A stretch of DNA of 44,365 nucleotides from a virus, in the UHGV virus genome UHGV-1373966, one strand, 5' to 3'. The position numbers and the translations under genes were made by a program. The number at the start of each line of letters is the position of its first letter. Positions within the stretch are counted from its first letter, which is position 1. This document shows positions 2,513-15,556 of the stretch, piece by piece. Under the pieces are notes generated by a model. The model did no database searches, was not told the origin of the DNA, and was given only the letters and a program-made list of their open reading frames with translations.

Positions 2513-3135
2513 TACTGTTCTCCTTTACCGAATAAATGTAGGTTACTGGCGATTGCAGACTGGCGCTCAGACGGGTCTTTAATCGCTTCAATATCCTTTC
2601 GTGTCATAGTTCCTGGCGTATTCTGCTTACCTACTGGTGCGGTAAACCTCGCCATGTTCTGCTGTACCTGCTGCTGTGCATCATCAACAAAAGCCGAAGC
2701 ATCTTTTTCTTTCATTTGAGACAAAAGGTCATTCAGCCCCAGAATTTTACCATCTTTCAGTTTTAAACCGGCCTCTTTTACTTCTGCCATAATTGCACGT
2801 TTAGCCGCTTCACTGGAAAACTTAATACCCTCAAATTCCGTTTTCAGAGCGTCCGAAAAGTCACGCTCGTAAAGCTGCTCCTGGGCTTTTTTCTCGGCTT
2901 CTGTAGCTTTCTGTTTCCAGTCAGATATTTCCCTCTGCATCGTCTCCAGGTCAACCCCTTCAAAGCCTTTCAGCGTTGCTTCTGCTGCTTCTGCTTTTTC
3001 TTTCCAGGTATCCCGGTCCGCGCTCAGATTGTCGTTTTCTTTCTGCAACTTTTTGAGGTCTTTCCCATTTTCAGCCATGACAAAAGATATCTGTTCCTCT
3101 GTCAATCCCTGTGCTTTTAATTCTTCGGTTTTCAT
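2512..3135 (-). CDS. capsid scaffolding protein
   Basis: 207 aa, highly charged coiled-coil (E/K/A-rich), stop/start abutting the capsid gene. Confidence 0.6.
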   Translation of the reverse strand: MKTEELKAQGLTEEQISFVMAENGKDLKKLQKENDNLSADRDTWKEKAEAAEATLKGFEGVDLETMQREISDWKQKATEAEKKAQEQLYERDFSDALKTEFEGIKFSSEAAKRAIMAEVKEAGLKLKDGKILGLNDLLSQMKEKDASAFVDDAQQQVQQNMARFTAPVGKQNTPGTMTRKDIEAIKDPSERQSAIASNLHLFGKGEQ

Positions 3136-3229
3136 TGATGATTCTCCTTTTTTCCGTTATTAGGTTATTTGTAGGTGTGTAACCGTCCACCAACGGTTTG
3201 CCATTTTGTAGGACTTGGCGTGTCCAAAA

Positions 3230-3318
3230 CTGAGGATGCTGGATTTGAACCAGCGTAAAGAGTGTTCCTTCTTTGCCGGGGTCAAAACCCGGTGCCTTAA
3301 CCGCTTGGCGAATCCTCA
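3230..3318 (-). tRNA. type-II-shaped tRNA (21-nt variable arm, 3-bp D stem) with anticodon loop UUUUGAC, apparent anticodon UUG (Gln)
   Basis: RC reads TGAGGAT-TC-GCC..GGC-A-CCGGG-TTTTGAC-CCCGG-(21-nt arm)-GCTGG-TTCAAAT-CCAGC-ATCCTCA-G; all stems pair; U1-A72. Confidence 0.5.
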
Positions 3319-3466: not shown

Positions 3467-3539
3467 ACGGGAAAAGAGGAATCGAACCTCTGACACACAG
3501 CTTATAAGGCTGCTGCTCTACCAACTGAGCTATTTCCCG
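3467..3539 (-). tRNA. tRNA with anticodon UAU (Ile, AUA-decoding)
   Basis: RC reads CGGGAAA-TA-GCTC-AGTTGGTA-GAGC-A-GCAGC-CTTATAA-GCTGT-GTGTC-AGAGG-TTCGATT-CCTCT-TTTCCCG-T; canonical cloverleaf, no encoded CCA. Confidence 0.7.
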
Positions 3540-3888
3540 ATTGCATTTCTTGAAAACTCCTCGTCACGCCTTTTTGCGCCGCATATGTACTCTGAAATGC
3601 TGTCAGCCCGCCGATATCCCACCAAAACAATGCCGTATCATTTTTCAGTTTCGTCCAGGTCATAACTGACAAGTTTTTTCTATCTCCATTACGGGAGGAG
3701 GATAGCCTTTAGAAGGAATGCACATGCCGGAAATTGCATCCGCTTTTCAACCTACAGGCCGTTTACTCTATGAGCTAGGACCTGTTTCTGTTAAGGACAT
3801 GTGCTATAGGAGGGAGGTTCAAATATAGTAAAAAGCCATGCAAACTACATTGCTGTAATCTGTATGGCTCTGCGACTGGCGACTGGCT

Positions 3889-12873: not shown

Positions 12874-13095
12874 TCACCTATATCTTGCGCAATTATCAAT
12901 ATAGCTCAAAGGTAACAATACCGATTGTTCCTTTAATATCTGTCTCTGCAATCCTTTAGGTGTATAGATGCAGTTTGATATCAATTCATTTATTCCTTGC
13001 CGTATAACGCATTCCTCTGTGTATGAATGACCAGGGGAAATATCAACATACTTTTTTAGAAATTGTCCTACTCGCTTTTTGCTATATTCTGTCAT
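12874..13095 (-). CDS. small hypothetical protein
   Basis: 73 aa ORF between the large terminase and portal genes. Confidence 0.3.
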   Translation of the reverse strand: MTEYSKKRVGQFLKKYVDISPGHSYTEECVIRQGINELISNCIYTPKGLQRQILKEQSVLLPLSYIDNCARYR

Positions 13096-13929
13096 GCACT
13101 GTTCCCCCTTCTCATTGACAACGGGCTTGTAGCATAACGGAGAGCGTCAATCCAGTGGTCGTTCCCATCTGGATAATCTGCTATCACTTCGCCATTGCTA
13201 TCAACCTCATGCTCATATTCTATGATTTCCTTGTATGCCCGTGGCGTACGTGCCGGGTCTATAACGATTGTACGGCACTGCAACCACTCAAAGGTATATT
13301 TCCTGCTTCCTGGCGTTACAATGGCTCTGCGGGCCGGTAAACCAGCGTCACGGAAGTCTATAATGCTTTCTTCTTCATCCACTCCGCAATAGATTGTATA
13401 ATCATCGTACCCAGCCGTCTGTATATCCTCCGCCATCTTACTGTTACGAATTTTGCAGCCTCCCATTTCATCAAGCAGCACAACCATTTCCTTGTTCGGT
13501 ATGTATGCAGCCCGGATAAATGCTTTTGGGTCCGGGAACCATCCCCAGTCCTGTCCCTGGTAAACGCTTTGGTATCCCTTGATTTCATCATCTGTAATGG
13601 TCCGTATATCCAGCATGTCAAATATATTTGTACCAAGCCCAACAGGTAATCCTAAATACTCATGGTTATATGCCCGCTCATTGGTAGTCTTAAGATGTTC
13701 TGCGCGCTCAATAAACATTTCTCCTAACCATTCTTCCGGTACAGAACGGTAATCGCTTTTATGCCTGCATGCGCTATCATCCGGCGTATTTACATACTGA
13801 TTAGCCCAGTTGCTTTGACTGATAGGAGGGTTAAATGATTTAAATACAACAAACTTGCTTCCGCCACGCAATACTGACTGTTCAACAGTTCGTATTTCCT
13901 CCGGTCCTGCAAATTCGTCCAGTTCTTCA
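13092..13929 (-). CDS. terL: terminase large subunit, exon 2 (nuclease domain)
   Basis: frame opens after a TAA at about 13938; begins ...FEELDEFAG..LRG..FNPP and ends DGNDHWIDALRYA (terminase nuclease motifs). Confidence 0.6.
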
Positions 13930-14779
13930 CAATTTTGTTACGCATATACCGTTTCCGTATACACTCACCATATTACTATGGTGTTCAGACTATATCATGT
14001 AAATGGAATCTGTTACCAATTCCACTCACCCCACTTTTTCAACCTCACTCGAGGCTTACTCTACTCGTTCTCAGTTATAGATTTCTCTATAACCTACCTT
14101 TCGATAGTCGTTGCACATTATTATTCGACATTCTTATAGCTTTTTCTTCTTACGCATTTATCAATTACAGAAGGACTTACATTATATTTTTTTGCTAGAG
14201 CGTTCATTCCAAACTCTTTATCATGTCCCTTATAAATTCTGCGAATTTCTCTCACTTCATCTTCGCTCAAAACATGATTCCCTTGTAAATATCCTCGAAC
14301 TGGCTTTTTTAAGCCATTTGCATAAGCATGCTGCATTTGCTCCTCGCGGGTAGCCCATTCTAAATTGTCTGCGTTGTTATTGGATTTATCTCCATCAATG
14401 TGATTAACTGTAGGTTTATTTTCTGGGTTATTAACAAAAGCCTCAGCCACAAGCCTATTTGCTCGCTTTGTGTACTGTTTGCCATTCATGCACAAGTTGT
14501 ACCATACATAACCATCATGCGATACTCTTTGCTTTAAAATGACTTCTCGGCCATGCTTATGGCTTTTTACCCTTCCTGTATTGCTAATCTCATAGTCCTC
14601 AAACCCTTTAATAATTCTCCAAATTTCTTTCATGGTATTTTCTCCTTAAATTCGTTTATTATATTGTACCATAAAAGATGAATTTATTAAATATTATGTC
14701 GAATAATCTTTGCTCAGGATTGTCCTATTTTGTAGGAGTTTCCCTGAATTTAATGGGTTTAACGTGGTCAGAAGTGTTT
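13930..14779 (-). mobile_element. group I intron (about 850 nt) carrying an HNH homing endonuclease, inserted in terL
   Basis: exon 1 ends ...TGGTT (U) and exon 2 starts after an intron-terminal G, giving spliced ...KYLWFEELDEF matching the terminase consensus W-F-E-E; free-standing ORF inside. Confidence 0.55.
14121..14633 (-). CDS. intron-encoded HNH homing endonuclease (NUMOD/HNH_3 type)
   Basis: VNHIDGDKSNNNADNLEWAT HNH motif; AAGGAG RBS; 170 aa. Confidence 0.7.
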   Translation of the reverse strand: MKEIWRIIKGFEDYEISNTGRVKSHKHGREVILKQRVSHDGYVWYNLCMNGKQYTKRANRLVAEAFVNNPENKPTVNHIDGDKSNNNADNLEWATREEQMQHAYANGLKKPVRGYLQGNHVLSEDEVREIRRIYKGHDKEFGMNALAKKYNVSPSVIDKCVRRKSYKNVE

Positions 14780-15201
14780 AACCACAAATATTTGAAGTAT
14801 CCCTTACTAGCTTTAATTGACTTTGTTTTCTTTGCCTTATCAAGTCCACGGAATATTATCTTTTGTCCTGTTGGCTTATAAACGAATCTGTATGGGCTTG
14901 TACGGGATTCCCATAAATCTGTTACTCCTAATGCGTCTATCGCCCACTGTATCTGTTCAAATACTGATTCTCCGATGGTTACGGCGTACTTACGAAACAC
15001 TACCGCATTGGCCTCTGGGTCATCCATCATTCCCAGTATGATTTCAACGGATATGAAAGAGGACTTTGTGGAACCGCGCCCACCGTAAAGGTCATAATAT
15101 GTATGTTTACCTTCAAGGATATCCCAATGAACATCATAGAAGGACGGAGCGATTACATCAGTCAGATTTATTGTTGTCTGGTCTTGGTATGTTGTTGACA
15201 A
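14780..15201 (-). CDS. terL: terminase large subunit, exon 1 (ATPase domain)
   Basis: Walker A YGGRGSTKSSF; its in-frame stop lies inside the intron. Confidence 0.6.
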
Positions 15202-15556
15202 TGGTAATCCCGCCGCCCTCCTGCTTCTTGTCTGTATCTATTTTACGCTTTGCCAGTTCCACCGCCGCTTTGGTCCTCTCTGCCAGCGGAGCATCAAGTC
15301 CGAATTGGTCTTTTACTTCTCCGCGCATTACAGACGTAAGGTATTGCAGTATTTCAGCGGCATCAGCTATGCGGCAATCATCAATCTGTTTCTGTCGCTC
15401 GGAGATATATGCAGAAACCGTAGGCTTCCGTAAGTTTTCACGCCCTATTGCGTCTGCTGTCCGTAAGCTGTAACCAGCCTTTCTCGCAGCTTCTGCCGCA
15501 TTCCCGCACTCTATGTAATAATCTGCAAACGCTTTCTGCTTCGGTGTAAGCTCCAC
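15158..15556 (-). CDS. terS: terminase small subunit
   Basis: LTPKQKAFADYYIECGNAAEAARKAGYS N-terminal HTH typical of TerS (P27 family); overlaps the start of terL. Confidence 0.65.
   Translation of the reverse strand: MELTPKQKAFADYYIECGNAAEAARKAGYSLRTADAIGRENLRKPTVSAYISERQKQIDDCRIADAAEILQYLTSVMRGEVKDQFGLDAPLAERTKAAVELAKRKIDTDKKQEGGGITIVNNIPRPDNNKSD

Follow-up and report, generated by a model that had tools for sequence, protein, structure and literature searches.

A probable group I intron carrying a homing-endonuclease gene in the large-terminase gene of a human-gut phage

In the virus genome UHGV-1373966 (44,365 nucleotides; the whole stretch was analysed and is called the window here), the gene for the large terminase, TerL, appears as two fragments separated by about 850 nucleotides (nt) that contain an HNH endonuclease open reading frame (ORF). 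This raises the question of whether the fragments are separate genes, the remains of a broken gene, or the two exons of one gene interrupted by a group I intron, as an earlier note on this DNA had proposed. Our analysis makes it very probable that TerL of this ~44-kb temperate-type human-gut phage is interrupted by a group I intron that houses a homing-endonuclease gene (HEG); splicing itself, the activity and target of the endonuclease and the use of its promoter we infer. The locus is laid out as follows.

14780..15201, minus strand: TerL exon 1, residues 1-140 and two bases of the Phe141 codon; Terminase_3 profile positions 2-111
13930..14779, minus strand: the probable group I intron, 850 nt, following exon U14780 and ending with omega-G 13930
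14121..14633, minus strand: endonuclease gene, 170 amino acids (aa), with NUMOD4, the HNH_3 catalytic domain and a C-terminal helix-turn-helix; I-HmuI-like
13092..13929, minus strand: TerL exon 2, third base of the Phe141 codon, then residues 142-419

The positions that the earlier note had given for the exons, the HNH ORF and the ~850-nt gap proved exact on the minus strand. The ORFs listed on this strand are 15201..14725 (158 aa), 14633..14121 (170 aa) and 13871..13092 (259 aa). The first opens with a TTG at 15201, the probable start codon of TerL, and its 5' end overlaps the end of an upstream small-terminase-like ORF (15158..15556). It encodes the Walker A-type motif GGRGSTKS and reads ...KGYFKYLW, followed by 18 codons of the insert up to a TAG, so that its TerL-coding part stops at 14780 (TGGTT). 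Exon 2 encodes Glu-Glu and completes the ATPase domain; the RNase H-like nuclease domain is also encoded there. The GC content of the intron is 36% versus 41-46% in the exons.

Exon 1 ends with ...TAT TTG TGG TT at 14780 and exon 2 starts with T GAA GAA CTG GAC at 13929, immediately preceded by G 13930. With 14780 joined to 13929, the reading frame continues unbroken (1260 nt) and encodes a 419-aa product reading ...KYLW-F-EELDEF..., with GYFKYLWFEELDEFAG across the junction; the conceptually ligated exons read ...TTTGTGGTT|TGAAGAAC..., and the junction-spanning sequence is TATTTGTGGTTTGAAGAACTGGA. No neighbouring junction restores WFEE, and the splice point is therefore unique at the nucleotide level. 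The spliced product gave one continuous match to Pfam Terminase_3 (profile positions 2-200, 2.2e-37), whereas the separate ORFs matched positions 2-111 (the first) and 131-200 plus the Terminase_3C nuclease domain (the third). It also passed the NCBIfam model TIGR01547 for PBSX-family TerL (128.6 bits, cut-off 105.05), and its nuclease domain matched PDB 2WBN (8e-20). The restoration of the W-F-E-E segment predicted by the earlier note was thus borne out, while its division of the gene into an ATPase half and a nuclease half has to be corrected, since the junction falls within the ATPase domain (Terminase_3, residues 33-234), at residue 141. Read from the conceptual product, the proposed insertion point splits the Phe codon preceding Glu-Glu after its second base (KYLWF|EE). 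This Glu-Glu, right after the junction (YLWF-EE), we read, by comparison with P-loop ATPases in general, as the end of Walker B, an acidic pair.

The junction bears on an alternative in which the terminase is truly split by a free-standing HNH gene and two polypeptides assemble with no RNA splicing, as in T4-like phages. Existing annotation agrees with such a split: GenBank presents the related loci of Clostridium phage CPQ4 and Lactobacillus phage LBR48 as three coding sequences (CDS), gene callers do likewise in metagenome contigs, and free-standing endonucleases do split genes in T-even-type phages (PMC2988022). Exon 2 has, however, no start codon at the junction; the first one available is a TTG 19 codons in, which lacks a Shine-Dalgarno sequence and would lose EELDEF. 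The break also interrupts a codon, that of the Phe directly preceding the Glu-Glu taken for the Walker B pair.

Relatives with an uninterrupted gene point to an insertion. The annotated 414-aa terminase of Dulem virus 35 (PP511522), found by blastn against phage records, is 82% identical to the conceptual product over 413 residues with 0 gaps, and identical across the junction. The terminase of MT835739 is a single open frame with no interruption, and the best 80 IMG/VR relatives, up to 98% identical, are all uninterrupted (80/80). The empty site of one IMG/VR relative, TACTTCAAATATTTGTGGTT|TGAAGAACTGGACGAATTTG, equals the ligated exons of the window exactly; the empty terminase site sequence is TACTTCAAATATTTGTGGTTTGAAGAACTGGACGAATTTG, and variants frequent among intron-less relatives are CTCTGGTTCGAGGAA. 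Therefore, the 850 nt are an insertion into an ordinary terminase gene, neither a frameshift nor a two-gene boundary. This agrees with the gap-free alignment of the spliced product to TerL homologs, a check proposed in the earlier note, which gave no sign of separate genes or of a frameshift.

Insertions or interruptions of other kinds, namely an intein, a group II intron or a translational bypass, are extremely improbable. Terminase genes are known as intein hosts, but in the TerL frame stop codons appear 18 codons into the insert, which rules out an intein. No reverse-transcriptase ORF is listed in the insert, nor was a significant group II match obtained, which speaks against a group II intron. 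A length of 850 nt far exceeds any known bypass, and the evidence for a group I intron is positive.

This evidence comes in part from Rfam. At the gathering score, Intron_gpI (RF00028) gave no match in the window (best 29.5 versus 50 bits), nor did any group I model in eight near-identical IMG/VR loci. A permissive search of 13700..15000 returned two sub-threshold Intron_gpI matches on the minus strand, in the correct order and with the ORF between them. One, at 14747..14664, covers model positions 60-142 (P4-P6) with 22.3 bits (E 0.004), and the other, at 14113..13966, reaches 29.5 bits (E 2.9e-5) and takes in the GAUAUAGUCU element of J8/7-P7' and the P9 hairpin. A natural ORF-less intron at the same codon position (locus L223) scored 67.2 bits against the gathering score of 50; its host TerL is ~60% identical to that of the window, and its site, ...CTG TGG TT|...G|C GAA GAG, likewise gives W-F-E-E. 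The ORF-less sequences with the P4'/J6-7/P7 motifs, retrieved by a pattern bridging P4' to P7 and including L223, all exceeded the gathering score (9/9, 58-93 bits). Since ORF-less homologs pass, the shortfall of the window is attributed to the 592-nt ORF insert in the P6 loop, which splits the model. The covariance-model check suggested in the earlier note thus came out in favour of the intron, through the ordered sub-threshold matches and the score of the ORF-less L223, although a match at gathering score in the window did not appear. The motifs ACGACUAUCGAAA, GAGUAGAGUA and GAUAUAGUCU, as well as an identical P7 and the overall layout, are common to introns of Bacillus phage BpSp scoring 82-83 bits.

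That phage record (vB_BpuM-BpSp, KT895374, 863..2499) contains three group I matches within 1.7 kb beside an RNA polymerase beta-subunit fragment: two introns at 82-83 bits and a third with an ORF between its halves, with no intron annotated. In contigs of metagenome-assembled genomes (MAGs) from Lachnospiraceae, Bacilli and others (L148, L145, L115, L184), 2-4 related group I 3' cores per locus, consisting of ACGACUAUCGAAA ... GAGUAGAGUA ... GAUAUAGUCU, were found within a few kb, which suggests genes with several introns.

The secondary structure deduced for the window intron consists of the following elements.

14763..14786, minus strand: P1, exon UGUGGUU (14786..14780) with guide GACCAC(G) (14769..14763); U14780-G14769 wobble at the 5' splice site
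14757..14752, minus strand: P3 5' strand, CCCAUU; double changes in 3/6 pairs
14747..14742 with 14719..14714, minus strand: P4; double changes in 4/6 pairs
14737..14733 with 14727..14723, minus strand: P5; double changes in 3/5 pairs
14713..14711 (GCA) with 14115..14113 (UGC), minus strand: P6, at the base of a ~595-nt loop with the endonuclease gene and its expression signals
14111..14105 (ACGACUA) with 13992..13987 (UAGUCU), minus strand: P7, with a bulged C; invariant in all homologs
14094..14073, minus strand: P7.1, covarying
14066..14057, minus strand: GAGUAGAGUA motif, 3' half of the core
14056..14041, minus strand: P7.2, covarying
14035..14030, minus strand: P3 3' strand, 3' half of the core
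14025..14003, minus strand: P8, covarying
13983..13966, minus strand: P9; double changes in 5/7 pairs
13964..13942, minus strand: P9.1; double changes in 6/8 pairs

Every core helix is intact. The U / omega-G rule invoked by the earlier note applies: U14780 pairs with the guide G14769, as the exon U does with the guide G in 7/7 homologs, and the intron terminates with G13930, which the 3' tail after P9.1 reaches. Exon and guide positions of P1 covary, with G-C replaced by U-A in a Streptococcus pseudopneumoniae homolog (L160; exon CUUGGUU, guide GACCAAG) and U-A by U-G in the homologous locus L084. A potential P10, read from the sequences, would pair CUUC (14774..14771) with GAAG of exon 2. 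In L223, a short hairpin occupies the place of the P6 loop. In P7, the pair G14109-C13988 follows the bulged C14110 in all homologs; by analogy with the Tetrahymena intron, we take it to be the guanosine-binding pair. No space for P2 is left in the window intron, and P7.1 and P7.2 lie between P7 and the 3' strand of P3, an arrangement that we presume to mark subgroup IA. By the presence of P7.1 and P7.2 and the absence of P2 the intron thus looks like a member of subgroup IA.

The introns of the eight close contigs are 98-100% identical, too little variation for covariation, and distant homologs were used instead. The alignment comprised seven ORF-deleted introns (window, L084, L089, the Clostridiales MAG L098, CPQ4, L160 and LBR48). 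From it, RNAalifold without guidance recovered P1, the long-range P3, P4, P5, P6, P7.1, P7.2, P9 and P9.1, with compensatory double changes in 32/63 pairs. For the count over the full structure, P7 was entered as a pseudoknot and P8 was added, and the controls were partners slid by 1-3 columns and 500 shuffles. Standard pairs were formed in 96.3% of cells, compared to 34-46% with slid partners, and 37/70 pairs were changed on both sides, compared to 5-7; in neither measure did any of the 500 shuffles reach the observed value (0/500). P3, P4, P5 and P8 covary, P6 changes on one side only, and P7 is invariant. The seven homologs support the P3-P9 core, whose absence from covariance-model results the earlier note had named as one outcome that would sink its proposal. 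A further RNAalifold helix, ACGACUAU/GUAGAGU, was set aside: a nested-only predictor cannot draw the crossing P7 and P3, and both strands of this helix are invariant, so the data favour neither it nor P7.

These results also weigh on the split-terminase alternative. The 340 non-coding nt around the ORF make up a covarying group I core, and the ORF-less insert at the same site passes Rfam, for which a free-standing insertion cannot account. With these features added to those of the junction, a truly split terminase is highly improbable, and an intron remains our reading of the insert.

The protein encoded in the P6 loop has the composition of a homing endonuclease. It matched Pfam NUMOD4 (2e-12, 47.5 bits, cut-off 23.4) and HNH_3 (1e-9, 38.4 bits, cut-off 24.8), while the match of its C-terminal helix-turn-helix was weak. 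Residues 5-107 align with I-HmuI (PDB 1U3E, 1.3e-14), including the His and Asn of the HNH motif. Its gene is preceded by the Shine-Dalgarno sequence AAGGAGA at 14647..14641, and the ratio of nonsynonymous to synonymous substitution rates (dN/dS) is 0.08 relative to L084. In the otherwise near-identical intron of L088 (IMGVR_UViG_2834711990_000001), a one-base deletion (CGCAG-ATTTAT, equivalent to window ~14235) frameshifts the endonuclease, reflecting either decay of the gene or an assembly error; the intron of L223 has no endonuclease gene. Two candidate expression signals lie at the start of the gene.

14663..14690, minus strand: promoter-like site, TTAATA, 16 nt, TGgTACAAT; ~30 nt upstream of the endonuclease start codon
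14627..14677, minus strand: predicted hairpin of CUUUUAUGGUA (14677..14667, overlapping the -10) with UACCAUGAAAG (14637..14627, containing the endonuclease start codon); z = -2.25

The -10 reads TGGTATAAT in L084, L085 and L089 and also in the divergent L098, CPQ4 and L160. On the strength of this conservation, which spans four divergent lineages, the endonuclease gene would seem to be served by an extended -10 promoter of its own, of the host sigma-70 type. Folding predicted analogous pairings of the start codon, formed by different sequences, in CPQ4 and L160; in L098, the Shine-Dalgarno sequence would be sequestered instead. In the folding model, the hairpin would form only on read-through pre-mRNA, as transcripts from the internal promoter would lack its 5' strand.

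The same intron with its endonuclease gene occupies the same site in eight IMG/VR contigs, and introns at this site are also found in the Clostridium phages CPQ4 and PMQ04, the Clostridiales MAG (L098) and the S. pseudopneumoniae genome (L160). CPQ4 and LBR48 were found by blastn with the ORF-deleted intron, and L098 and L160 by a genome motif scan. The genome scan with the 16-mer ATGATATAGTCTGAAC returned mostly unrelated group I introns; L098, L160 and L180 were the only relatives of the terminase intron among the matches listed. The insertion site of L160 was at one stage read as different, from a tblastn alignment of residues 1-155 that proved to be read-through into the intron; the site is W-F|E-E.

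The exact 170-aa endonuclease protein is indexed in 1231 blocks of a metagenome collection. In all eight metagenome contigs shown, several of them from the human gut, the endonuclease lies between two terminase fragments, near an integrase (8/8). In metagenome contigs with the identical endonuclease (L213-L220), the intron-bearing TerL is paired with at least two upstream small-terminase types (Terminase_2; helix-turn-helix/CENP-B_N), which points to mosaic exchange adjoining the intron-bearing gene.

Comparison of loci indicates movement of the intron independently of its surroundings. Relative to L087 or L090, the intron and endonuclease gene of the window are 100% identical, while the synonymous distance (dS) of the exons is 0.40 for exon 1 and 0.47-1.5 for exon 2. 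Relative to L084 and L085, the non-coding parts of the intron are 98% identical and the exons ~72%, and the exon mismatches closest to the intron are 12 nt before the proposed 5' splice site and 7 nt after the proposed 3' splice site; these sharp boundaries delimit the moving unit by the splice sites within a few bases. Upstream of the intron, L087 and L090 differ from the window by 1, 4 and 30 exon mismatches at 0-100, 100-200 and 200-390 nt, a gradient of the pattern expected for co-conversion during homing, which other recombination could also yield. Judging from these population signs of recent horizontal spread, the intron probably is, or recently was, mobile.

Could the element nevertheless be a group I intron so decayed that splicing has been lost, making the terminase a pseudogene of a defective prophage? 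Such a state would fit with splicing being deduced rather than observed, with the Rfam score below threshold and with the frameshifted endonuclease of L088. Several findings speak against it. In intron-bearing contigs, exon dN/dS is 0.03-0.13 at dS 0.4-1.5 (0.03-0.06 for exon 2; exon 1 relative to L084 and L085 was left out since the sequences are not in register there), so that the terminase is under strong purifying selection and the insert must be removed from the mRNA. The core helices of the window intron are all intact. The same layout occurs in CPQ4 and PMQ04, cultured lytic phages of C. perfringens that must package DNA, and the element is very widespread, with identical sequence across many samples. 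A decayed, non-splicing element is therefore very unlikely.

Several observations weigh against a functional, mobile group I intron or limit the support for it. In addition to the Rfam score below the gathering level, P7 and several core motifs are invariant and hence provide no covariation support, and in P8 of L084 and L085 one pair is lost (A.G). The pairing statistics come from an alignment of only seven sequences, three of which are closely related, and that alignment also supplied part of the structure under test. The number of promoter-like matches in the region, 5 versus 4.5 expected, is not above chance. RNA splicing is predicted from sequence, and because the L088 copy is frameshifted, endonuclease activity is not to be assumed in every copy.

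If the intron works as proposed, the operon transcript would hold exon 1, the intron and exon 2, and the intron RNA would fold into the P3-P9 core. The internal guide GACCAC would pair with the exon end GUGGUU, placing a U-G wobble at the splice site. Free guanosine held in P7 could then attack after U14780, after which the 3'-OH of exon 1 would attack after omega-G 13930. The ligated mRNA would be translated into the 419-aa PBSX-family TerL needed for packaging of phage DNA. The endonuclease would be produced from its own extended -10 promoter, with the hairpin masking the start codon on read-through pre-mRNA. I-HmuI nicks one strand. During co-infection or in lysogens, the I-HmuI-like NUMOD4/HNH product would be expected to act on terminase alleles that lack the intron, with a nick or a cut close to the insertion site, and repair off the intron-bearing copy would copy the intron in. 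Besides homing, the endonuclease, given its apparently host-type promoter, might be expressed from a resident prophage as a weapon that cuts the terminase of superinfecting intron-less relatives, a role that we consider possible but rather unlikely. If true, the intron would be part of inter-phage competition in the gut, and the hairpin and promoter would form a module convergent or shared with those of T4 intron endonucleases.

Gene callers and the GenBank records of CPQ4 and LBR48 report such loci as two terminase fragments and an endonuclease, and annotation of this kind can make a functional phage look defective and distort terminase-based phylogenies. The element is very common in human-gut metagenomes, and this one codon position is a recurrent target, hit in phages of Clostridium, Streptococcus and uncultured Clostridiales. 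Because of the ORF in P6, the intron escapes a standard Rfam scan, and surveys at the gathering score will undercount endonuclease-bearing introns. In biological terms, the locus is one more example and offers no new principle. Mildly new are the recurrent site before Glu-Glu across distant Firmicute phages, the abundance in the gut, and the finding that pieces of TerL in CPQ4 and LBR48 are annotated as separate genes.

Other structured RNAs are encoded elsewhere in the window, all on the minus strand. A full-length match to the RAGATH-21 RNA motif, a structured RNA, is located at 3719..3805 (79.7 bits, gathering 70.3). Two tRNA genes lie at 3467..3539 and 3230..3318, of which the second has a long variable arm, and a match to the GP20-b cis-regulatory motif at 3161..3225 (39.4 bits, gathering 36.2) directly adjoins them.

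An intron in a terminase gene is known from Lactobacillus phage LL-H. Terminases are among the usual targets of phage group I introns (review, PMC3984707). Prophages of the B. cereus group contain the terminase introns term-IVS1 and term-IVS2, and for term-IVS1 homologous ribozymes carry unrelated endonuclease genes (PMC2504315). For the TerL intron of Bastillevirinae such as SIOphi, splicing has been demonstrated in vitro as well as in vivo (PMC11878797). Terminase genes with HEG-bearing group I introns are thus on record, and the window locus is a further case. It resembles these Bacillus phage and prophage elements, which are self-splicing group I introns in terL, some with HNH genes (PMC11878797, PMC2504315), and differs from them, in a comparison by description only, in its host, a ~44-kb human-gut phage with a PBSX-type (Terminase_3) TerL.

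Counterparts at the same insertion point are the introns of CPQ4 (MZ401006), PMQ04 (MZ995505) and S. pseudopneumoniae (NZ_JVLI01000157), which share the W-F|E-E site, the NUMOD4/HNH_3 type of endonuclease and a homologous ribozyme with compensatory changes. Compared to the window, TerL of CPQ4 is 42% identical and that of Streptococcus more distant, and the introns are ~65% identical where alignable. Conceptual splicing in CPQ4 gives a continuous 425-aa TerL. LBR48 has a related ribozyme ~20 codons upstream of the window site (FRG|LDD) with a GIY-YIG ORF where window-type introns have HNH, an exchange like that described for term-IVS1 of B. cereus. In the records of both phages (MZ401006, 1248..3324; GU967410, 1475..3614), three CDS and no intron feature are annotated. 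When LBR48 is spliced at FRG|LDD, the frame breaks again ~45 codons downstream, before FFKQITLTFNP (~2620..2790), and possible causes are a further interruption, a frameshift and a sequencing error; our literature search found no paper naming both LBR48 and an intron.

With regard to the endonuclease, the window resembles the DNA-polymerase intron of Bacillus phage SPO1 and its I-HmuI (1U3E), in which an N-terminal NUMOD4-like region and HNH are likewise encoded within a phage group I intron; the host gene and the target differ. T4 intron endonucleases have their own promoter upstream of the ORF, and a hairpin that hides the translation start is confined to read-through transcripts (PMC2988022). 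As in the T4 td intron with I-TevI, the ORF in the window lies in a peripheral loop of the ribozyme, with a promoter-like site just upstream and a hairpin predicted to mask the start. In contrast to I-TevI, a GIY-YIG enzyme expressed from a T4 late promoter, the window has an HNH enzyme and a sigma-70 extended -10-like element, which the 5' strand of the predicted hairpin overlaps.

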